Positions 5,335-64,000 of a DNA stretch of 64,000 bases are shown here, piece by piece. The notes under the pieces were generated by a model. That model worked only from the letters and a program-made list of their open reading frames with translations. It was not told where the DNA came from and made no database searches. The DNA lies in the NCBI RefSeq assembly GCF_002854065.1, contig NZ_CP024147.1. One strand, written 5' to 3'. This DNA is from Escherichia coli (GTDB lineage Bacteria; Pseudomonadota; Gammaproteobacteria; Enterobacterales; Enterobacteriaceae). Position numbers and translations under genes: made by a program. Numbering within the stretch: position 1 is the first letter of the stretch; every line of letters begins with the position of its first letter.

Positions 5335-6354
5335 TTAGTGGCTGCTGCGCTCGTCCTTGCGTGCACGACCTAATAACGTCAATGCTGCCTCGCGCGCGTT
5401 TTTTCCGCAATATAATACTTGATAAATTTCCTCGGTTATTGGCATTTCAACGCCGAAGCGATGCGCCAGTTCGCGGACTTCTTTCGTATTGCGGTAGCCT
5501 TCCACCACCTGACCAATCTTCTCCTGCGCGCTTTGTACATCCATGCCCTGACCGAGCATCATGCCAAAACGGCGGTTACGCGACTGGTTGTCGGTACAGG
5601 TAAGCACCAGATCCCCCAGCCCCGCCATGCCCATAAAGGTGGCAGGATCGGCACCCAGCGCCGCGCCAAGACGCGACATTTCAGCCAGCCCACGGGTGAT
5701 CAGCGCCGTACGCGCATTCGCACCAAAACCGATACCGTCGGACATCCCCGCACCAATGGCAATGACGTTTTTCACCGCGCCGCCAAGCTGCACGCCAATG
5801 AAATCCGGGTTACTGTAAACGCGGAAACTTTTGCCGCAGTGCAGCAGCTGCTGAAGATCATCAGCAAAGGTCTGATCGGTCGAGGCCAGCGAAATAGCTG
5901 TCGGTAAACCTGCCGCCAGTTCTTTCGCAAACGTTGGGCCAGAGATAACCGCCAGCGGAATTTGATCGCCTAACGCCTCGCGGGCCACGTCCTGTAACAG
6001 ACGCCCGGTTTCCGCTTCCAGCCCTTTGGTCGCCCACACCAGACGCGCATCAGGACGCATCAGCGGTTTAATCTGGCGCAGCACTTCACCAAAGACATGG
6101 CTGGGTACGACGACGAGAATATTACGGCTGGCTGCCAGCGCAGTGGCGAGATCGCTTTCAAGATGGAGCGTATCGGGAAAAGGCACATCGGGGAGAAACG
6201 CGGCGTTACAGCGGTCGCGTTCAAGCGTTGCGATATGTTCAGGGTCATGGCCCCAGAGGACAACCTCGTGGCCATTTCTTGCCAGGGTGATGGCAAGAGC
6301 GGTGCCGTACGAGCCGGCACCGATCACAGTCATTGAAGCATTACGTTGGTTCAT
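5335..6354 (-). CDS. gpsA: NAD(P)H-dependent glycerol-3-phosphate dehydrogenase
   Basis: ORF track 5335..6354 (339 aa); Rossmann motif [10 protein letters not shown]; synteny secB-gpsA-cysE. Confidence 0.96.
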
Positions 6355-6821
6355 CAGGCATCCTGATGTTCTTCAGTACCTTCGCCAGCCTGCTGCTGCA
6401 AATAGTTCATGAACAGCGCATCGAAGTTAACCGGCGCAAGGTTCAGTTGCGGGAATGTACCGCGGGATACCATGCTGGTGATGCACTCACGAGCATACGG
6501 GAACAGAATGTTCGGGCAGTATGCGCCCAGGCAATGTGCCATCTGGGTGCCTTCGATACCCGCGATGGAGAAAATACCGCCCTGCTGAACTTCACACAGG
6601 AACGCGGTTTCTTCGCCCAGGGAGGCCGTTACGGTAACACGCAGTACCACTTCGTAAACGTCATCTGCCAGTTGAGTAGATGCCGTATCCAGATCAAGTT
6701 TAACTTCTGGCTGCCAATCTTTCTGGAAAACGTGCGGCGCGTTCGGCGCTTCGAAAGAAATATCCTTGGTATAAATACGTTGGATCTGGAAAGTCATTTC
6801 GGTGTTGTTTTGTTCTGACAT
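6354..6821 (-). CDS. secB: Protein-export chaperone SecB
   Basis: ORF track 6354..6821 (155 aa); [29 protein letters not shown] matches recalled SecB. Confidence 0.96.
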
Positions 6822-6883
6822 GTGTAGAAAACCCTTAAGTGTTGTCCTTAAATACTGCGCAATGTAATGCCAACGTTCACACG

Positions 6884-7135
6884 TTATTTCAGCAGGGGAT
6901 CCAGTCCACCACGTGCATCCAATGCATACAAGTCATCACAGCCGCCAATGTGCTGTGCGTCAATAAAAATCTGGGGAACCGTGGTGCGACCGCTGCGTTT
7001 GATCATCTCTTCACGCTTGGCGGCGTTGCCATCGATCGGCAGCTCCTGGAAACTCACGCCTTTGCTGCTCAGCAGTGCTTTTGCACGATGGCAATACGGG
7101 CAGGTTTCTTTGGTATAGATTTCAACATTGGCCAT
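6884..7135 (-). CDS. grxC: Glutaredoxin 3
   Basis: ORF track 6884..7135 (83 aa); CPYC active-site motif. Confidence 0.95.
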
Positions 7136-7276
7136 AAATTAGCTCCTGTTTTTTTACCCTGAAATTTCATGTTGCAGGGCGGCAGCAAAATGGAGTGTCC
7201 CCAGAAGCTTATAACAATAAGTCGCTGGGGGCCTAATTGCAGCTAACGGCCTGCATCATGAAAGACGACAGGTAAA

Positions 7277-7708
7277 TTATTTGCCGCGCACCAAAGGCAA
7301 GTTTTCGCCAGCCCAGCCAGCGACGCCTTCTTTCAGCACGAATACTTGCGCAAAACCAGCTTTCGTCAGTGCGTTTGCAGGCTCCTGGCACTGCATGCCA
7401 GAACCGTCTACCACGATAACCGGTTTGTCTTTGTGCTTCTCAAGCTCACCAACATTGTTGGCTTTGATTTCGCTCGGCAACAGATTAATAGAACCTGCGA
7501 TATGGCCTTTACGGAAGTCATCACGCTGACGTAAATCCACAACCACAGCGTCTTCTTTGTTGATCAGACGCGTAGCTTCACCACGACTAATCACCTTCAC
7601 TTTCGAGGTCAGGCTCTTAAACGTAGTCACAAGAACCGCCACCAGTAACGCGATCCAGGCGATACTCAGTATGGGATGACGGCCAACAAATTGCATAATT
7701 TCTTGCAT
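7277..7708 (-). CDS. yibN: Rhodanese-domain inner-membrane protein
   Basis: ORF track 7277..7720; start trimmed to [12 protein letters not shown] (recall); single TM plus rhodanese domain. Confidence 0.88.
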
Positions 7709-7952
7709 GGGGGGTAACAACTCCCGACGTAGTGATTAAAAAAACCAGGAAAGGAGTATACCTGCGCGGTGCGGCAAATACAGCCAGCGCGTTAACTGGA
7801 ATGCAATTTTGCGGGGCGCGACGAAAAAAAAGCGTAAATCTGGCATCGGCTTGCCGCGAGCGGTCGTATATTTTGATCTTCAGAGGCTATTTTATCGATT
7901 CAGCTGTAGTAAAATTACGCAAATTTTGACTCTTGAGTATGAGGTTGTCGCA

Positions 7953-9497
7953 ATGTCGGTTTCTAAAAAACCTATGGTACTGGTGATTCTGGATGGCTAT
8001 GGCTATCGCGAAGAACAGCAGGATAACGCCATTTTTAGTGCTAAAACCCCGGTAATGGATGCACTGTGGGCCAATCGTCCGCATACCCTGATCGACGCTT
8101 CCGGTCTGGAAGTCGGTCTGCCTGACCGTCAGATGGGTAACTCCGAAGTAGGCCACGTTAACCTGGGTGCCGGCCGCATCGTGTATCAGGACCTGACTCG
8201 TCTGGACGTTGAAATCAAAAATCGCGCTTTCTTTGCTAATCCAGTGCTGACTGGCGCGGTAGATAAAGCGAAAAACGCAGGCAAAGCGGTACACATTATG
8301 GGTCTGCTCTCCGCAGGCGGCGTACACAGCCACGAAGATCACATCATGGCGATGGTAGAACTGGCAGCTGAACGCGGCGCAGAAAAAATCTACCTGCACG
8401 CATTCCTTGACGGTCGCGACACTCCGCCGCGCAGTGCTGAATCCTCGCTGAAAAAATTCGAAGAGAAATTTGCCGCGCTGGGTAAAGGCCGCGTAGCGTC
8501 CATCATTGGTCGTTACTACGCGATGGACCGCGATAACCGTTGGGATCGCGTTGAAAAAGCTTATGACCTGCTGACTCTGGCGCAGGGTGAGTTCCAGGCC
8601 GATACCGCCGTTGCTGGTTTGCAGGCTGCTTATGCTCGCGACGAAAACGACGAGTTCGTGAAAGCGACCGTTATTCGTGCAGAAGGTCAGCCAGATGCGG
8701 CAATGGAAGACGGCGATGCGCTGATTTTCATGAACTTCCGTGCTGACCGTGCGCGTGAAATCACTCGTGCTTTCGTGAACGCTGATTTCGATGGCTTCGC
8801 GCGTAAGAAAGTGGTTAACGTCGATTTCGTGATGCTGACCGAATACGCCGCTGACATCAAAACTGCGGTTGCTTACCCACCCGCTTCCCTGGTTAACACC
8901 TTCGGCGAGTGGATGGCGAAAAACGACAAAACTCAGTTGCGTATTTCCGAAACCGAAAAATATGCCCACGTTACTTTCTTCTTCAACGGTGGCGTAGAAG
9001 AGTCGTTCAAAGGCGAAGATCGCATTCTGATCAACTCACCGAAAGTGGCTACCTACGATCTGCAACCGGAAATGAGCTCCGCAGAGCTGACCGAAAAACT
9101 GGTTGCGGCCATCAAGAGCGGCAAATACGACACCATCATCTGTAACTATCCGAACGGCGACATGGTAGGTCACACCGGGGTGATGGAAGCGGCGGTTAAA
9201 GCGGTTGAAGCACTGGATCACTGCGTGGAAGAAGTCGCGAAAGCGGTTGAGTCCGTGGGTGGACAACTGCTGATCACCGCTGACCACGGTAACGCTGAGC
9301 AGATGCGCGATCCGGCAACGGGTCAGGCACATACGGCACACACCAACCTGCCAGTTCCGCTGATTTACGTTGGCGATAAGAACGTGAAAGCGGTTGAAGG
9401 CGGCAAACTTTCTGACATCGCGCCGACCATGTTGTCGCTGATGGGTATGGAAATCCCGCAAGAGATGACTGGTAAGCCGCTGTTCATCGTGGAATAA
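7953..9497 (+). CDS. gpmM: 2,3-bisphosphoglycerate-independent phosphoglycerate mutase
   Basis: ORF track 7809..9497 with upstream extension; start placed at in-frame ATG 7953 ([19 protein letters not shown]); iPGM family. Confidence 0.95.
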
Positions 9498-37418: not shown

Positions 37419-37434
37419 CTGTATATAAATACAG
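37419..37434. promoter_or_regulatory. LexA (SOS) box upstream of dinD
   Basis: ctgtatataaatacag = CTGT-N8-ACAG with AT-rich core, about 45 bp upstream of the dinD start. Confidence 0.8.
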
Positions 37435-38304: not shown

Positions 38305-38595
38305 CAGAAACTAAAAACTCTTTTTGTTGATTGAGACACCCGATGCGTAAGCCAAAGTCCAGGTGCGGTGAATACAATAGCTAAACATTGCACCTTTCTT
38401 TTCCACCCCTCAGTTTTAACCTATTTTTTCTTATGCATTTTCTCAGACAAGAAGTCAGAAGAATGCATCTCCGCTACAGAAAATAGCGATTTCACATAAC
38501 TACAAGTTATCAATTCCCCCTCACCTTAAAAAATCTCAATCGTGACAATACGCACAAATCGCTACCCTGCCAGACAGATTTTTAGGGAGAGAACC

Positions 38596-41773
<3,178 letters not shown>

Positions 41774-50178: not shown

Positions 50179-51888
50179 ATGAAATTTATTGGGAAGCTGC
50201 TTCTCTACATTCTCATCGCTCTGTTAGTGGTGATCGCTGGCCTCTATTTTCTTCTGCAAACCCGCTGGGGAGCAGAACATATCAGCGCATGGGTTTCCGA
50301 GAATAGCGACTATCATCTGGCCTTCGGGGCGATGGATCACCGTTTTTCCGCGCCATCTCATATCGTGCTGGAGAACGTCACGTTTGGTCGTGATGGTCAG
50401 CCCGTGACCCTGGTGGCAAAAAGTGTCGACATTGCGCTAAGCAGTCGGCAACTGACCGAACCACGCCATGTCGATACCATCCTGCTGGAAAACGGGACGC
50501 TGAATCTCACCGGCCAGACCGCGCCGCTACCGTTCAAAGCCGATCGTCTGCAACTGCGTGATATGGCGTTTAATAGCCCGAATAGCGAATGGAAACTGAG
50601 CGCGCAGCGGGTAAATGGCGGCGTGGTTCCGTGGTCACCAGAAGCCGGTAAAGTGCTGGGTATGAAAGCGCAGATTCAGTTTAGTGCCGGATCGCTTTCG
50701 CTCAATGATGTTCCTGCCACCAATGTACTGATTGAAGGCAGTATTGATAACGATCGCGTTACGCTGACTAACCTGGGTGCCGACATCGCGCGCGGGACAT
50801 TAACCGGAAACGCGCAGCGTAACGCCGACGGCAGCTGGCAAGTGGAAAATCTGCGCATGGCGGATATCCGTCTACAAAGCGAAAAATCGCTAACCGACTT
50901 CTTTGCGCCATTACGCTCTGTCCCGTCGTTGCAGATTGGTCGCCTGGAAGTGATCGATGCTCGTCTGCAAGGTCCGGACTGGGCGGTGACCGACCTCGAT
51001 CTCAGCTTGCGCAACATGACCTTCAGTAAAGATGACTGGCAGACACAGGAAGGCAAACTGTCGATGAACGCTAGCGAGTTCATTTATGGTTCGCTGCATT
51101 TATTTGACCCGATTATAAACGCGGAATTTTCCCCGCAGGGCGTAGCGCTGCGCCAGTTCACCAGCCGCTGGGAAGGGGGTATGGTCAGAACGTCAGGGAA
51201 CTGGCTGCGTGACGGGAAAACGTTGATCCTTGATGATGCGGCAATTGCCGGGCTGGAATATACCTTGCCGAAAAACTGGCAACAGTTGTGGATGGAAACG
51301 ACACCCGGCTGGTTAAACAGCCTGCAACTGAGGAGATTTAGCGCCAGCCGCAATCTGATCATTGATATCGACCCTGACTTCCCGTGGCAGCTCACCGCGC
51401 TCGATGGTTACGGTGCCAACCTGACGCTGGTTACCGATCATAAATGGGGCGTCTGGAGTGGTTCGGCGAATCTGAATGCCGCCGCCGCGACGTTTAATCG
51501 TGTTGATGTCCGTCGTCCGTCTCTGGCGCTAACCGCCAACAGCAGCACGGTGAATATCAGCGAACTGAGTGCATTTACTGAAAAAGGCATTCTGGAAGCC
51601 ACTGCCAGTGTTTCACAAACGCCACAACGTCAGACCCATATCAGCCTGAATGGACGCGGTGTGCCGGTGAATATTTTGCAACAGTGGGGATGGCCTGAAT
51701 TACCGTTGACTGGCGACGGCAATATTCAGCTTACCGCCAGTGGCGATATTCAGGCCAATGTCCCGTTGAAACCTACGGTTAGCGGGCAATTGCATGCCAT
51801 GAACGCCGCAAAGCAGCAAGTGACTCAAACCATGAATGCGGGCGTAGTTTCCAGTGGTGAAGTTACGTCGGCAGAGCTGGTGCAGTAA
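50179..51888 (+). CDS. yicH: AsmA-family protein
   Basis: ORF track 50155..51888; start trimmed to MKFIGKLLLYILIALLVVIAGL (N-terminal TM anchor). Confidence 0.92.
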   Translation: MKFIGKLLLYILIALLVVIAGLYFLLQTRWGAEHISAWVSENSDYHLAFGAMDHRFSAPSHIVLENVTFGRDGQPVTLVAKSVDIALSSRQLTEPRHVDTILLENGTLNLTGQTAPLPFKADRLQLRDMAFNSPNSEWKLSAQRVNGGVVPWSPEAGKVLGMKAQIQFSAGSLSLNDVPATNVLIEGSIDNDRVTLTNLGADIARGTLTGNAQRNADGSWQVENLRMADIRLQSEKSLTDFFAPLRSVPSLQIGRLEVIDARLQGPDWAVTDLDLSLRNMTFSKDDWQTQEGKLSMNASEFIYGSLHLFDPIINAEFSPQGVALRQFTSRWEGGMVRTSGNWLRDGKTLILDDAAIAGLEYTLPKNWQQLWMETTPGWLNSLQLRRFSASRNLIIDIDPDFPWQLTALDGYGANLTLVTDHKWGVWSGSANLNAAAATFNRVDVRRPSLALTANSSTVNISELSAFTEKGILEATASVSQTPQRQTHISLNGRGVPVNILQQWGWPELPLTGDGNIQLTASGDIQANVPLKPTVSGQLHAMNAAKQQVTQTMNAGVVSSGEVTSAELVQ

Positions 51889-55933: not shown

Positions 55934-56028
55934 ATCGAGGCGCGGAAGATCGTCGTCTCCGGTGAGGCGGCTGGACTTCAAATCCAGTTGGGGCCGCCAG
56001 CGGTCCCGGGCAGGTTCGACTCCTGTGA
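55934..56028 (+). tRNA. selC: tRNA-Sec (selenocysteine, UCA anticodon)
   Basis: 95-nt sequence ggaagatcgtcgtctccggtgaggcggctggacttcaaatccagttggggccgccagcggtcccgggcaggttcgactcctgtgatcttccgcca; long variable arm, anticodon loop cttcaaa. Confidence 0.97.
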
Positions 56029-56674
56029 TCTTCCGCCAAAATGCCTCTTCTGACGTTCTCCAATCCCTTGTAATACTGTCAATCCAGAGATTTTCTACTG
56101 CTCAATATTCAATCGGCTTCAGGAATACCTGATCAAAGGTTTTGTGATGGACGATGAGCGACTGAAGAATCCGCCTGTCGGTTCTTCTGTCCTCGAACGC
56201 ATCCGCGATATTCGCGCCAGCATGCGCCGTGTTTATTTGCAGGTGATTTGCCCCCCTGCTGACTCTCAGCCAACTGTATCGCCATTAAGGTGAAGATGTT
56301 GTTTTACACGCTTCTGCACACCCTTTTTTATACGACTGTTCTATTCCTTTAACAGCTGGCAAAAAAACTGACCTATAAACTTCACCAATAATCAGACTGC
56401 CATTAAGATTAATTTGTTCATTTAATATATCAAATCAACTTGTTTTATTTTTACTATCAAAAATAGCTCATTGCCTTACTATAATTAATATATAAATTCG
56501 GTGATTAATTCTTAACATGCTTTTGCTAATAATCTCAATTGCTGGCCCTATAATATTGCGCTAGCATTGTTTTCTGGTTGTATCAGCGATACTCAAAAAT
56601 TCTTAATACAATACTCATTCGACTGGTACTTATTTGTAACTCAGTTATATTTTGTCGCCCGGTGATTCAGAAGA

Positions 56675-57859
56675 ATGCAAAAAACGGCTACCACTCCATC
56701 AAAAATACTTGATCTCACTGCCGCGGCATTTTTACTTGTCGCCTTTCTGACGGGTATTGCGGGCGCTCTCCAGACTCCCACCCTAAGTATATTCCTCGCA
56801 GATGAACTGAAAGCCCGTCCTATAATGGTAGGTTTTTTCTTCACCGGTAGCGCTATTATGGGAATTCTGGTCAGTCAATTTCTGGCAAGGCACTCCGATA
56901 AACAAGGCGACCGTAAATTACTGATTCTGCTATGTTGCTTATTTGGAGTGCTGGCCTGCACGCTTTTTGCGTGGAATCGCAACTACTTCATTCTCCTCTC
57001 AACGGGCGTACTTCTGAGTAGTTTTGCTTCTACCGCAAACCCGCAAATGTTCGCCCTCGCCCGTGAACACGCCGACAGAACAGGCCGTGAGACGGTCATG
57101 TTCAGTACATTTTTACGTGCTCAGATCTCGCTTGCCTGGGTTATCGGGCCACCGCTCGCTTATGAACTGGCAATGGGATTTAGTTTTAAAGTGATGTATC
57201 TCACCGCTGCCATCGCATTTGTTGTTTGCGGGCTGATAGTCTGGTTGTTTTTGCCATCAATACAAAGACATGTTCCTGTCGTTACCCAACCCGTAGAAAT
57301 TTTACCCTCCACCCATAGGAAGCGGGATACGCGGCTACTTTTTGTGGTCTGTTCAATGATGTGGGCGGCGAATAATCTCTACATGATAAATATGCCGCTA
57401 TTTATTATTGATGAACTGCATCTAACCGATAAACTGGCTGGAGAAATGATTGGTATCGCTGCCGGTCTGGAAATTCCGATGATGTTAATCGCAGGCTATT
57501 ACATGAAACGTATTGGCAAGCGACTATTAATGATCATTGCTATCGTGAGTGGAATGTGTTTTTACGCCAGCGTACTCATGGCGACGACTCCGGCAGTTGA
57601 GCTGGAATTGCAAATTCTTAACGCCATCTTCCTTGGTATTCTCTGTGGTATCGGCATGCTTTATTTTCAGGACCTGATGCCTGAAAAAATAGGCTCTGCG
57701 ACAACGTTATATGCAAATACTTCACGCGTCGGCTGGATTATCGCCGGCTCTGTTGACGGAATTATGGTTGAAATCTGGAGCTACCACGCGTTGTTCTGGC
57801 TGGCGATAGGGATGTTGGGTATTGCGATGATTTGCTTGCTGTTTATTAAAGATATTTAG
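56675..57859 (+). CDS. setC: MFS sugar efflux transporter
   Basis: ORF track 56675..57859 (394 aa); 12-TM MFS translation; located about 650 bp downstream of selC as recalled for setC (yicK). Confidence 0.92.
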   Translation: MQKTATTPSKILDLTAAAFLLVAFLTGIAGALQTPTLSIFLADELKARPIMVGFFFTGSAIMGILVSQFLARHSDKQGDRKLLILLCCLFGVLACTLFAWNRNYFILLSTGVLLSSFASTANPQMFALAREHADRTGRETVMFSTFLRAQISLAWVIGPPLAYELAMGFSFKVMYLTAAIAFVVCGLIVWLFLPSIQRHVPVVTQPVEILPSTHRKRDTRLLFVVCSMMWAANNLYMINMPLFIIDELHLTDKLAGEMIGIAAGLEIPMMLIAGYYMKRIGKRLLMIIAIVSGMCFYASVLMATTPAVELELQILNAIFLGILCGIGMLYFQDLMPEKIGSATTLYANTSRVGWIIAGSVDGIMVEIWSYHALFWLAIGMLGIAMICLLFIKDI

Positions 57860-57969: not shown

Positions 57970-58893
57970 ATGGGTTCCACCAGAAAGGGGATGCTGAACG
58001 TTCTGATTGCCGCCGTGTTGTGGGGAAGTTCAGGGGTCTGCGCGCAATACATCATGGAGCAAAGCCAGATGTCGTCGCAGTTTTTGACTATGACGCGTTT
58101 GATATTCGCCGGTTTGATTCTGCTGACGCTGTCATTTGTTCATGGCGATAAAATTTTTTCTATTATTAACAATCACAAAGATGCCATTAGTCTGCTGATT
58201 TTTTCCGTGGTTGGCGCGCTAACCGTACAGCTCACCTTTTTACTGACCATCGAAAAATCGAATGCTGCCACGGCAACGGTGTTGCAATTCCTCTCACCGA
58301 CGATTATCGTCGCCTGGTTCTCACTGGTACGTAAATCGCGTCCGGGCATTCTGGTTTTTTGCGCTATTTTGACATCGCTGGTCGGGACTTTTTTATTGGT
58401 GACACACGGTAATCCGACGTCATTATCGATCTCTCCTGCCGCGTTATTCTGGGGAATTGCCTCGGCATTTGCTGCGGCATTCTATACCACCTATCCCTCA
58501 ACGCTGATTGCCCGCTATGGCACGTTACCAGTCGTCGGCTGGAGTATGCTGATTGGCGGTCTGATTCTGTTGCCTTTTTATGCCAGACAAGGAACAAACT
58601 TTGTCGTTAACGGCAGTTTGATTCTGGCGTTTTTTTATTTGGTGGTCATTGGTACATCTCTGACATTTAGCCTGTACCTGAAAGGAGCACAATTAATTGG
58701 CGGTCCAAAAGCCAGCATTTTAAGCTGTGCAGAACCATTAAGTAGCGCGCTGCTCTCTTTGCTGTTGCTGGGGATCACGTTCACATTGCCGGACTGGCTG
58801 GGAACGCTGCTGATTCTGTCATCGGTAATTTTGATTTCAATGGATTCCCGTCGCCGCGCCAGAAAAATAAATCGTCCAGCGCGGCATGAGTGA
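57970..58893 (+). CDS. yicL: DMT/EamA-family inner-membrane transporter
   Basis: ORF track 57970..58893 (307 aa). Confidence 0.92.
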
Positions 58894-58896
58894 GAA

Positions 58897-59325
58897 TTAC
58901 CAGCCAGGCACCGCGCCACCGTTAAAGATGGTTTCTGCCGCTTTTGCGACTTCGGGTGATTGATAAGATTGCAGAAATTCCTTCACGTTTTCTGCATTCT
59001 TATTATCTTCCCGTGCCACCAAAATATTCACATACGGCGAATTTTTATCTTCAATAAATACGCTGTCGTGCACCGGAGAAAGCCCGGTCTGCTGAATGTA
59101 AGTGGTGCTGATAATCGCCACATCAACTTTGGGATCATCCAGTACGCGCGGGAGCTGCGCCCCCTCGAGTTCCATAATCTGCAAATGACGAGGATTCTCG
59201 GTTATATCCAGCGCGGTAGGTAGTAACCCTTTTCCCTCTTTCAGAGTAATTAGCTTCTCTTTTTGCAACAGTAAAAGCGCGCGACCAAGGTTGGTCGGAT
59301 CGTTGGGGATCGCCACTGTCGCGCC
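58897..59325 (-). pseudogene. nlpA: Truncated nlpA (lipoprotein-28, methionine-binding family): only the C-terminal half, 5' part replaced by IS1
   Basis: ORF track 58897..59316 (139 aa) matches the recalled NlpA C-terminus (AIPNDPTNLGRALLLLQKEKLITLKEG...GGAVPGW); the frame continues upstream directly into the IS1 terminal repeat; no signal peptide or lipobox present. Confidence 0.85.
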
Positions 59326-59380
59326 GGTGATGCTGCCAACTTACTGATTTAGTGTATGATGGTGTTTTTGAGGTGCTCCA

Positions 59381-59656
59381 GTGGCTTCTGTTTCTATCAG
59401 CTGTCCCTCCTGTTCAGCTACTGACGGGGTGGTGCGTAACGGCAAAAGCACTGCCGGACATCAGCGCTATCTCTGCTCTCACTGCCGTAAAACATGGCAA
59501 CTGCAGTTCACTTACACCGCTTCTCAACCCGGTACGCACCAGAAAATCATTGATATGGCCATGAATGGCGTTGGATGCCGGGCAACCGCCCGCATTATGG
59601 GCGTTGGCCTCAACACGATTTTCCGCCATTTAAAAAACTCAGGCCGCAGTCGGTAA
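59381..59656 (+). CDS. insA: IS1 InsA (DNA-binding inhibitor/transposase N-part)
   Basis: ORF track 59381..59656 (91 aa); [40 protein letters not shown]. Confidence 0.95.
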
Positions 59657-60078
59657 CCTCGCGCATACAGCCGGGCAGTGACGTCATCGTCTGCGCGGAA
59701 ATGGACGAACAGTGGGGATACGTCGGGGCTAAATCGCGCCAGCGCTGGCTGTTTTACGCGTATGACAGGCTCCGGAAGACGGTTGTTGCGCACGTATTCG
59801 GTGAACGCACTATGGCGACGCTGGGGCGTCTTATGAGCCTGCTGTCACCCTTTGACGTGGTGATATGGATGACGGATGGCTGGCCGCTGTATGAATCCCG
59901 CCTGAAGGGAAAGCTGCACGTAATCAGCAAGCGATATACGCAGCGAATTGAGCGGCATAACCTGAATCTGAGGCAGCACCTGGCACGGCTGGGACGGAAG
60001 TCGCTGTCGTTCTCAAAATCGGTGGAGCTGCATGACAAAGTCATCGGGCATTATCTGAACATAAAACACTATCAATAA
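59575..60078 (+). CDS. insB: IS1 InsB frame (expressed as the InsAB' transposase by -1 frameshifting)
   Basis: ORF track 59575..60078 (167 aa) in the -1 frame relative to insA, overlapping its 3' end. Confidence 0.9.
59632..59638 (+). other. IS1 programmed -1 ribosomal frameshift motif (A6C)
   Basis: tttaaaaaac within the insA/insB overlap. Confidence 0.7.
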
Positions 60079-60101
60079 GTTGGAGTCATTACCTAGACGA
60101 C

Positions 60102-61466
60102 TTACTTACCAATACAGAAGCTGGAGAAAATCCGCCCCAGCAGGTCGTCAGAGGTAAATTCCCCGGTGATTTCGCTTAAGTTCTGCTGCGCCAGGCGCAA
60201 CTCTTCCGCCAGTAGTTCGCCTGCCCAGGCACCTAACAGTTGCGCTTTACCTTGCTGCAAATGCTCCGCTGCCTGTTCCAGCGCCTGTAGGTGGCGACGG
60301 CGCGCCAGGAAGCCGCCTTCCATGTTGGTGTCAAAGCCCATGCTCTGTTTGAGATGGTTACGCAGCACGTCCACGCCTTCGCCAGTCCTTGCAGACAGAC
60401 GAATTAACGCGTGACCGTTCACTTCACTTATTCCCAGCGTTTCGCCGGTGATATCGGCTTTATTGCGCACCACGGTGATCGGCAGTTTCGCGGGCAGACG
60501 GGCGATAAATTCCGGCCAGATCTCTGCCGGATCAACGGCGTCTGTCGTGGTGCCATCGACCATAAACAGCACGCGGTCGGCCTGTTCAATTTCCTGCCAC
60601 GCGCGCTCGATCCCAATACGTTCAACTTCGTCACTGGCTTCACGTAGCCCGGCGGTATCGATGATATGCAGCGGCATCCCGTCAATGTGGATATGCTCAC
60701 GCAGCACGTCACGCGTGGTTCCGGCGATATCAGTCACGATTGCTGCTTCACGGCCCGCCAGCGCGTTTAACAGGCTAGATTTACCGGCGTTAGGACGTCC
60801 GGCAATCACCACTTTCATCCCTTCGCGCAACAAACTACCCTGACGTGCTTCGGCACGCACTGCATCAAGATCGGCAATCACGTCATTGAGCTGAGCTTCA
60901 ATTTTGCCGTCGGAGAGGAAATCGATCTCTTCATCAGGGAAATCAATTGCCGCTTCGACGTAAATGCGCAAGTGGGTGAGGGCTTCCACCAGATGGTTGA
61001 CCCGTGCGGAGAATGCGCCTTGCAGCGAGTTAAGTGCCGAACGGGCTGCCTGTTCCGAACTGGCATCGATAAGATCGGCAATCGCCTCGGCCTGGGCTAA
61101 GTCGAGTTTATCGTTAAGAAACGCGCGTTCGGAAAACTCACCCGGGCGAGCAATCCGCAGGCCGGGAATGGTCAGAATGCGTTTTAACAGCAGGTCGAGG
61201 ATCACCGGACCGCCATGACCCTGCAGTTCCAGCACATCTTCGCCGGTGAACGAGTTCGGGCCAGGGAACCATAGCGCAATCCCCTGATCGAGCACGCTGC
61301 CGTCTGCGTCTTTAAATGGCAAATAATCGGCGTAGCGCGGCTTAGGCAGTTTACCCAGCACGGTTTCAGCAACTTCTCGGGCTTTGAGGCCGGAGATGCG
61401 CAGGATGCCCACACCACCGCGTCCCGGTGGGGTTGCCTGGGCGACGATAGTGTCGTTATGGCTCAT
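60102..61466 (-). CDS. mnmE: tRNA modification GTPase MnmE
   Basis: ORF track 60102..61466 (454 aa); G-domain motifs GRPNAGKSS and DTAG; C-terminal ...FCIGK. Confidence 0.96.
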
Positions 61467-61484
61467 GGTTTATCTCATCAATAC

Positions 61485-61514
61485 AAATAAAAAAGGCGGT
61501 CAACTGACCGCCCT
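61485..61514 (-). terminator. Intrinsic terminator downstream of yidC
   Basis: On the minus strand gggcggtcagttgaccgcc hairpin followed by tttttt. Confidence 0.55.
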
Positions 61515-61537
61515 TATTTTAGCGAAAACTCACCGAA

Positions 61538-63184
61538 TCAGGATTTTTTCTTCTCGCGGCTATGCAGGCCACGTTTTTCCAGACCACGGTAAATCAGCTG
61601 CTGCTGGATAATGGTTACCAGGTTGCTGACGATATAGTACAGCACCAGACCTGACGGGAACCACAGGAAGAACACGGTGAAGATGACCGGCATAAAGGTC
61701 ATGATCTTCTGCTGCATCGGGTCGGTCACTGTGGTCGGCGACATCTTCTGAATGAAGAACATCGTTACGCCCATCAGGATCGGCAGGATGTAGTACGGGT
61801 CCTGTGCCGAGAGGTCGTGGATCCACAGTGCAAACGGTGCCTGACGCAGTTCAACGGAACCCATCAGCATGTAGTACAACGCCAGGAAGATTGGCATCTG
61901 GATCAGCAGCGGGAAGCAGCCGCCCAGCGGGTTAACCTTCTCAGCTTTGTACAGCGCCATCATTTCCTGGCTGATACGCTGTTTGTCATCGCCCAGACGC
62001 TCACGCATCGCCTGAATCTTCGGCTGCAGCATACGCATCTTCGCCATGGAGGTGTACTGCGCTTTGGTCAGCGGGTACATGATGCCACGAACGATAAAGG
62101 TGATGATGATAATGGAGAAGCCCCAGTTACCCACAAAGCTATGGATCCATTTCAGCAGTTTGAACAGCGGTTGAGAGATGAACCACAACCAACCGTAATC
62201 AACGGTCAGATCCAGGTGCGGAGCAACAGCTGCCATTTTGTCCTGGATTTCCGGGCCAACCCACAGGGTGCTGTTCATCGCGCCAGTCTGACCAGGCTGA
62301 ACCAGTACCGGCTGAGATTTATAGCCGATAGCGGCGATGCCGTTACCCAGATTAGCGGTATAGAAGTTGTTGGTACCGTCGTTATGCGGGATCCACGCCG
62401 TCGCGAAATACTGTTGCAGCATTGCCACCCAACCACCTTTCGAAGAGATGTTCAGGTTTTCGTTATCGGCAATGGTATCGAACTTGTATTTCTCGTACTT
62501 CTCGTCAGGCGTAGAGTACGCCGCGCCACGGAAGGTGTGCAGTGCGAAGTTGCTGCTTCCGGTATCGAGATGCGGTGGCAGAGTGATGGATTGCTTCAAC
62601 TGACCAAATGAGGAGATTTCCAGCGGTTTCTCGCCAGCATTCTGCACGTTGTAGTTGACGTTGACAGCGTAATCACCACGTTTCAGGACAAACGTTTTGG
62701 TAAACGTGTTGCCTGCCGCGTCGGTATACGTCATCGGCACCTGCAGTTCGTTTTGACCTTCAGCCAGCACATAAGCGTCTTTTTCAACGTTATACAGCGG
62801 ACGCGGGCCGTTAGCCGGGTTATCCGGGCCATCACGACCGGTCAGACCGCTCTGTGCCTGATAAATAAACTGCGGTGAAGTTTCCAGCAGCTGGAACGGC
62901 TGGGTAGAGTTCAGCTCTTTCGGGTAAGCAGGCAGCAGAGCTTGCTCAACATCACCACCACGGGTGTTGATGGTCAGATCAAGCACGTCGGTCTTAACCG
63001 AGATCAGTTTCCCCTGGCCACTGGCCGGTACGCCCTGGTCGGCGGCGCTACCCGCTGCGGTGGTCGTTGTCTGCGTGGTCTGTTGGGCCTGAGGTTGCGG
63101 GTTTTTATCCTGCTCCCAGGCTTGCCAGATCATGAAAGACACGAACAGCAAAGCGATGACTAAAAGATTGCGTTGCGAATCCAT
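61538..63184 (-). CDS. yidC: Membrane protein insertase YidC
   Basis: ORF track 61538..63184 (548 aa); [26 protein letters not shown]. Confidence 0.96.
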
Positions 63185-63186
63185 CG

Positions 63187-63444
63187 TTAGTGTTCTCTGG
63201 TATCAAATGGTCCGGGCGGGACGGGATCGTCACCACCAGGGTGTAAAGGGTGGCATTTTAATACGCGTTTCACCGTCAACCAACTGCCTTTTATCACTCC
63301 AAACCTGCGCAATGCCTCAATTCCGTAGCTTGAACAGGTTGGAGTGAAACGACAATGCGGCCCGAGTAGCGGACTAATCAGGCGTTGATAGACCCGAATG
63401 AGGGCTATCAGGACCCGCGAGCCAGGCGACAGTGGCGGCGCCAT
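63187..63444 (-). CDS. yidD: Membrane protein insertion efficiency factor
   Basis: ORF track 63187..63444 (85 aa); overlaps the rnpA 3' end. Confidence 0.93.
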
Positions 63445-63767
63445 AATTTTTCCAACGCTTCCGAGAGAGCACGGTTATCGAGGTCGGCAACCCCTTTTTT
63501 CGCCACCACCACGAAATCCATAGCCGGGAGTTCATGTTGGCGCAGACGGAAGCTTTCACGCGTCAGACGTTTAATCCGATTGCGTTCATGGGCGCGTCGA
63601 ACGTTTTTCTTGGCGACTGTAAGACCGATACGGGGATGCCCCAGCGAATTCAGGCGGCCGAGAATGGTAATTTGCGGCGTGCCAGCCCGTTGTGGCTGCT
63701 GGAAGACGAATGTGAATTGACTGGGAGTTAACAAGCGTAACTCCCTGGGAAATGCGAGCTTAACCAC
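63408..63767 (-). CDS. rnpA: RNase P protein component
   Basis: ORF track 63408..63767 (119 aa); [26 protein letters not shown]. Confidence 0.95.
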
Positions 63768-63783
63768 TCAGGGGTTAGCTTTA

Positions 63784-63936
<153 letters not shown>

Positions 63937-64000
63937 CTAAACTTGAATAAATTCAATGGCTTTATTGGATATCCGCCGAAAAATGAAACGATGGACACCG

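Follow-up and report, generated by a model that had tools for sequence, protein, structure and literature searches.

An intact IS1 element at a rearrangement junction between a truncated nlpA and mnmE in Escherichia coli

This analysis concerns a copy of the insertion sequence (IS) IS1 that separates a truncated nlpA gene from mnmE in a 64,000-nucleotide stretch of Escherichia coli DNA (RefSeq assembly GCF_002854065.1, contig NZ_CP024147.1; one strand, hereafter the window). The element is complete, of the IS1B type, and occupies 768 bp of the plus strand at 59326..60093, with its left inverted repeat (IRL) at 59326-59348 and its right inverted repeat (IRR) at 60071-60093, the two being identical at 18 of 23 positions. 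The 23-mer of the IRL occurs a single time in the window, against 0 occurrences expected from 100 shuffles. Two intact plus-strand frames lie inside: insA (59381..59656, 91 amino acids), which has the IS1 zinc-binding domain and matches profile positions 1-81 of the NCBIfam IS1 family transposase model NF033558 (transpos_IS1) with an E-value of 1.8e-25, and the insB' frame (59575..60078), which matches positions 76-199 of the same model (E 6.4e-42). The A6C slippery motif, at 59632..59638, is also intact, and -1 frameshifting joins the two frames into the InsAB' transposase (59381..60078). All the properties that identify an IS1 are found: the element is about 768 bp long, imperfect inverted repeats of some 23 bp border it, insA and insB' are joined by an A6C frameshift, and the transposase matches the profile. 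E. coli CUWW06, a close relative considered below, has three IS1 copies in its complete genome that match the element at 768 of 768 positions, and the identical copy there is annotated as an IS1-like element IS1B family transposase, a 698-nucleotide joined coding sequence with 'programmed frameshift'.

On the left of the IS1, the minus strand carries what remains of nlpA (58897..59325). Its frame runs from the stop codon at 58897 up to the left end of the element and comprises 429 of 819 nucleotides, or 142 residues (codons 131-272 and the stop), which align to positions 131-272 of the 272-position NCBIfam profile NF007364. It is collinear with nlpA of CUWW06 up to position 5973 of the corresponding contig region (L001; coding sequence 5545..6363). 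The promoter, the start codon, the signal peptide, the lipobox and the first 130 codons are gone from the window, and the remaining gene is presumably a dead remnant, a pseudogene. On the right, 8 bp (TAGACGAC, 60094..60101) remain of the spacer that ancestrally lay between mnmE and a toxin gene described below. These 8 bp separate the element from the stop codon (60102..60104) of mnmE, an intact minus-strand gene of 454 amino acids (60102..61466) with a full-length match to NF003661. A sequence-only reading of this DNA had described a complete 768-bp IS1 with both inverted repeats, insA, insB and the A6C motif, the loss of the signal peptide and lipobox half of nlpA, a distance of 8 bp to the mnmE stop codon and the lack of a target-site duplication (TSD); the refined boundaries, the open reading frames (ORFs) and the profile matches agree with that description throughout.

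A simple IS1 insertion gives rise to a direct TSD of 8-9 bp. Direct or inverted matches of 8-12 bp between the 9-bp flanks, TGTCGCGCC on the left and TAGACGACT on the right, were sought at the refined boundaries and none is present. The window IS1 is a genuine element, yet not a simple insertion: it marks a rearrangement junction. In the history favoured below, neither of its ends still lies beside the DNA into which it originally inserted, and the TSD is therefore gone. One might suppose that IS1 simply inserted into a pre-existing adjacency of truncated nlpA and mnmE and that the TSD was later lost by mutation, but this is next to impossible: the flanks have zero similarity to each other, the flanking DNA is 100% identical to that of relatives, so that mutational decay lacked time, and an IS-free junction of truncated nlpA and mnmE occurs in none of 5,426 complete E. 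coli genomes. The unrelated flanks and the lack of any IS-free adjacency effectively refute a simple insertion with a decayed TSD. No TSD was found at any of the five IS1 copies examined (the window copy, three in CUWW06 and one in strain 100416).

The sequence-only reading had attributed the junction to an IS1-mediated deletion or inversion, or to recombination between two IS1 copies, that joined loci which are not neighbours in K-12, and had proposed an alignment of the flanks to K-12. That attribution is supported, and can be refined to an inversion plus deletion. The left flank reaches as far as 3,839,603 of K-12 MG1655, within nlpA (3,839,175-3,839,993, minus strand), and the right flank starts at 3,888,192, the final base of mnmE (plus strand); the two breakpoints are 48.6 kb apart in K-12 and about 63 kb apart in 100416. 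In both of these genomes nlpA is on the minus and mnmE on the plus strand, whereas in the window the nlpA remnant and mnmE are both on the minus strand. Since the relative orientation is opposite to that in K-12, the two loci were joined by inversion; a simple deletion does not account for the junction, and a plain loss of 48 kb is excluded by the orientation of mnmE.

The genes further out follow the same division. Left of the IS1, setC (56675..57859, plus strand), an ORF annotated as a sugar efflux transporter gene in the identical DNA of CUWW06 and 100416, and the intact yicL (57970..58893, plus strand), an ORF annotated in relatives as an EamA-family transporter gene and convergent with the nlpA remnant, are oriented as in K-12, as is nlpA itself. 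Right of it, mnmE, the first gene of the inverted segment, and yidC, yidD and rnpA (61538..63767, minus strand), which are ORFs annotated in CUWW06, are reversed, and the segment continues toward rpmH and dnaA past the window end. The guanine-cytosine (GC) skew is -0.028 to the left of the element (1-59325) and +0.008 to its right (60094-64000). Judged by comparison with its relatives, DNA that flanked the IS1 on either side is also gone from the window, and the rearrangement is an inversion plus deletion.

The order before these events is preserved in a relative. Over the 2-kb flanks on both sides of the window IS1, two complete E. coli genomes show 100% identity, those of 100416 (Gambia, stool) and CUWW06 (Thailand, wastewater, 4.65 Mb). 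In 100416, mnmE is followed by a convergent gene for a 723-amino-acid protein of the ShET2/EspL2 family (Pfam Toxin_15), the toxin gene, and then by tnaC-tnaA-tnaB. An IS1 lies 46 bp upstream of an intact nlpA in that genome, about 63 kb from mnmE, with its IRL toward nlpA and a truncated iatC on the opposite side. Of the contigs with the exact toxin allele 24 were read, and the order tnaBA-toxin-mnmE is found in every place shown. The exact MnmE and toxin alleles are common, and all the places shown have either the ancestral arrangement or are CUWW06 itself. The window IS1 probably occupied the position 46 bp upstream of nlpA before the rearrangement took place. The toxin gene itself (6699-8870 in the 100416 region, L002) is type III effector-like, and in many E. 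coli it occupies the interval from mnmE to tnaC, where K-12 has no such gene; it is broken in CUWW06 by the IS1 inversion and an IS2 (L001 7180-9853), and is wholly gone from the window.

CUWW06 carries the inversion. Its DNA runs collinear with that of the window, at 99.99% identity over 4678-59325 and 100% over 60094-64000, amounting to about 6 single-nucleotide polymorphisms (SNPs) in 59 kb. Its junction reads, in order, intact nlpA, 46 bp, IS1 on the plus strand, the toxin gene from nucleotide 833 onward interrupted by IS2, and mnmE on the minus strand. At the reciprocal junction an inverted IS1, on the minus strand at 38,593-39,360, has a truncated porin gene on one side and the final 80 nucleotides of tnaB on the other; this second copy has deletions on both sides, and tnaC, tnaA and most of tnaB are absent. 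GC skew changes sign at the two IS1 copies, being +0.029 in the interval that they enclose and about -0.03 outside it on both sides, and this flip confirms the CUWW06 inversion independently. The inverted segment, as now found in CUWW06, is about 43 kb. CUWW06 is also the only one of the 5,426 complete E. coli genomes in which both window flanks lie on one strand within about 4.8 kb, again with IS1 between them, while the exact junction of the window occurs in none of the 5,426. The CUWW06 junction of the truncated porin gene with IS1 was further seen in one Logan assembly and in several gut metagenomes, with no link to the genome of the window. The loss of tnaCAB (L006 38593-39572) should make CUWW06 indole-negative.

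Compared with CUWW06, the window lacks 436 bp to the left of the IS1 (L001 5974-6409), which are the 46-bp spacer and codons 1-130 of nlpA, and 2,806 bp to its right (L001 7178-9983), which are the toxin gene remains with the IS2 inside them and most of the 138-bp spacer between mnmE and the toxin gene. Both absences begin precisely at the termini of the IS1, and the element itself is intact and 100% identical. Losses that abut a retained IS terminus in this way are the signature of IS 'adjacent deletions'. The 5' half of nlpA was, in our reading, probably deleted rather than relocated. A draft assembly, GCA_035821435.1 (contig JAPQBK010000008.1), has the identical junction between truncated nlpA and IS1, with one SNP against the window in 10.5 kb, and its contig ends 75 bp inside the IS1. 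The assembly of the window is therefore not alone in showing the left junction.

An assembly artefact, in which two or three IS1 copies were collapsed and the DNA between them skipped (for example the 5' part of nlpA, the toxin remains and the IS2), or in which unrelated IS1 borders were misjoined, was considered in view of the at least ~36 IS1 copies in this lineage and of the tendency of drafts to break at IS1, as the draft just mentioned does. We consider it highly improbable, as the complete CUWW06 genome has the same nlpA-to-mnmE adjacency and orientation, the left junction occurs independently in GCA_035821435.1, the GC skew flips at the IS1 and the window is contiguous over 64 kb. For comparison, CUWW06 and 100416 each have 38-39 matching places, against a median of 12 across all genomes; for the IS1 copies themselves, the at least ~36 stand against a median of about 10 matching places per genome.

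With these observations in mind, the window IS1 is best explained as one of two inverted copies that bound an origin-proximal inversion of roughly 45-63 kb, reaching from the nlpA region to just past mnmE and including dnaA, dnaN, recF and gyrB. According to the history that we favour, and to which we give a probability of about 0.75, an IS1-mediated inversion shared with CUWW06 would have been followed by two IS1-adjacent deletions. The starting state would be that of 100416, with an IS1 46 bp upstream of an intact nlpA and its IRL facing the gene. By replicative intrachromosomal transposition, an 'in trans' attack, this IS1 may then have entered the toxin gene that follows mnmE; alternatively, it may have recombined with an inverted IS1 already present in the toxin gene region. 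Either route would invert the segment and leave one IS1 at each end; this outcome is seen in CUWW06, and the mechanism is our proposal. In the lineage of the window, a deletion would next have proceeded leftward from the IS1 terminus for 436 bp, taking the nlpA promoter and codons 1-130, and another rightward for 2,806 bp, taking the IS2-interrupted toxin gene and a hairpin and ending 8 bp before the mnmE stop codon. Each deletion may have been an IS1 adjacent deletion in cis, by intramolecular replicative transposition, or the product of recombination with a transient second IS1 in direct orientation.

Several points weigh against this history. The case for a shared inversion rests on one shared derived SNP and on the improbability of two inversions at the same loci, and the reciprocal junction of the window genome would lie beyond the window end. 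The right junction, between IS1 and mnmE, was seen in no independent assembly. The sequence looks alike whether deletions and inversion were driven by transposition or arose by homologous recombination between IS1 copies, and cannot tell these apart. Moreover, a history with a single deletion and a separate inversion calls for just as many events over the three genomes and, by that count, is no less parsimonious.

In that last scenario, the IS1 beside nlpA would have deleted 436 bp into the gene, and its IRR would then have attacked in trans a site 8 bp downstream of mnmE, inverting the segment in one step and separately from the event in CUWW06, which had its target within the toxin gene. The region can evidently accept IS1, since the unrelated strains H32 and H41 carry one beside mnmE/tnaC. 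Nevertheless we find this course of events very unlikely. It requires two inversions in one tight clone, with the same donor IS1 and endpoints within about 1.5 kb of each other by mnmE, in genomes (window and CUWW06) that differ by merely those ~6 SNPs in 59 kb. It also has to accommodate the derived T at position 51522, which is common to the window, CUWW06 and GCA_035821435.1 and is found neither in 100416 nor in the outgroups; the shared inversion is favoured for these reasons. If the inversion of the window were independent, the reciprocal junction would be expected to hold the whole toxin gene and, beside the IRL of an IS1, the 9 bp AGTCGTCTA, an expectation we hold to be very doubtful. 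There is likewise only a very slight chance that the mnmE-tnaC spacer and toxin region, together with the nlpA-proximal IS1, form a recurrent inversion pair in which the window inversion arose apart from that of CUWW06. Were it so, the pair would be a hot spot that repeatedly flips dnaA-dnaN-recF-gyrB by oriC in a circulating clone, and would offer a natural experiment on how well the reversal of essential genes relative to replication is tolerated.

One may also place the endpoint of the inversion inside nlpA, which was the implicit model of the sequence-only reading. Here an IS1 located 8 bp past mnmE would have inserted midway along nlpA by transposition, or undergone recombination with an inverted copy there, and the 5' half of nlpA would be kept at the far junction, some 45-60 kb past the window end. 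The mechanism is classic and explains both flanks in one or two steps. The ancestral IS1, however, was already present at a distance of 436 bp and in this same orientation, which makes a nearby origin simpler, and a coincidence with the CUWW06 inversion would again be needed. The NlpA(1-133)::IS1 read-through product that this model predicts has no record by exact-match look-up, which is weak evidence and would be uninformative if the gene were called differently or the genome lay outside the collection. We therefore regard an endpoint inside nlpA as distinctly unlikely, and return to the shared inversion followed by deletions on both sides.

Events of this class have long been known, and the locus involves no new mechanism or element. 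Turlan and Chandler (1995; cited as ref. 39 of PMC12428005) reportedly described replicative deletions by IS1. Adjacent deletions that start precisely at the terminus of the element, and inversions by intramolecular attack in cis or in trans, are typical of IS1 and Tn9 (PMC9330008), and replicative transposition of IS1 within the chromosome has been described (PMC12428005). The deletions of the window are like the IS1 adjacent deletions of that class (PMC9330008, section 5.2.1) in their start at the exact terminus, their variable extent, the retention of the IS1, the lack of a TSD and the fact that both ends of the element are affected in the lineage. No mechanistic difference is evident, although those of the window are superimposed on a prior inversion and come from comparative genomics rather than from experiment. 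The large IS26-driven inversion in Klebsiella pneumoniae (PMC10501869) and the IS1/Tn9 rearrangements (PMC9330008) proceed by duplicative inversion or by recombination between inverted IS copies. CUWW06 resembles such IS-bounded inversions in that two inverted IS1 bound the segment, the donor-side flank is kept at the IRL and the GC skew is flipped in between, whereas the flanks that would hold the diagnostic inverted 9-bp target copies were removed by the later deletions in CUWW06.

What the junction did to its neighbours can be followed most closely at mnmE. The ancestral 138-bp spacer between mnmE and the toxin gene contains a bidirectional hairpin with a 16-bp stem, 23-58 bp past the mnmE stop codon, with a T-rich tail on the mnmE strand. 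This mnmE-proximal hairpin, a likely terminator of mnmE, is deleted in the window, and mnmE transcripts therefore probably run into the IS1, antisense to insB. That the deletion ends 8 bp short of mnmE fits with selection against deletions that enter the gene. For annotation, nlpA should be treated as a pseudogene remnant, the IS1 as a rearrangement junction, and the DNA that runs from mnmE past dnaA as reversed with respect to the E. coli backbone.

Shigella and lineages like enteroinvasive E. coli (EIEC) show IS expansion with genome decay and rearrangement. The genomes studied here are alike in their high IS1 number, their pseudogenes, the loss of tnaCAB in CUWW06 and its small 4.65-Mb genome, whereas the relatives are labelled simply E. 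coli and come from stool and wastewater. The locus shows on a small scale how IS1 has eroded an IS1-rich clone step by step, through an inversion, deletions on two sides, the loss of a toxin pseudogene and, in the sister strain, the loss of tnaCAB. The inversion would reverse dnaA-dnaN-recF-gyrB and rpmH-rnpA-yidDC-mnmE relative to the movement of the fork from oriC. An intra-replichore inversion of dnaA-gyrB near oriC is of mild interest for studies of replication-transcription orientation.

Disruption of nlpA is found elsewhere in the species. A look-up of the 139-amino-acid NlpA remnant returned mostly unrelated lineages in which nlpA is split into two ORFs, with only GCA_035821435.1 (L014) carrying the IS1 junction. 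In several unrelated E. coli contigs (L007-L013) nlpA is called as two ORFs, one of 121 or 127 amino acids and the other of the same 139 amino acids, indicating independent disruption of nlpA near codons 120-130. These lineages have a cluster of type III secretion system (T3SS) translocator, chaperone and regulator genes, with a large invasin-like gene (iatC), beside nlpA and yicS. In 100416 the IS1 upstream of nlpA abuts the truncated iatC, and the T3SS cluster is therefore missing there.

Other features of the window and of CUWW06 lie away from the junction. Across the window, the sole structural difference from CUWW06 besides the IS1 junction is a 1.3-kb ISL3-like ISKox3 between yicC and dinD in CUWW06 (L005 32754-34069); the window is without it, and the target site is an 8-bp alignment overlap at 37423-37430. 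Between yieH and phoU, CUWW06 has another IS1 with no TSD (L004 2133-2900), which interrupts a further 'type III effector' gene. In K-12, cbrBC, yieKL and the bgl operon are presumably found at that place, and this order suggests another IS1-associated replacement or deletion. waaC (rfaC), at 18672-19646, is a 324-amino-acid ORF in the window; in CUWW06, where the DNA is collinear and its alignment to the window has no gap, the gene is annotated as 'frameshifted'. Finally, 55944-56278 holds the gene for tRNA-Sec (selC) followed by a short rhuM pseudogene fragment, by coordinates transferred from the CUWW06 annotation. K-12 has the pseudogene yicT at the same place as the rhuM fragment, and this stretch looks like what is left of an island that had integrated at selC.

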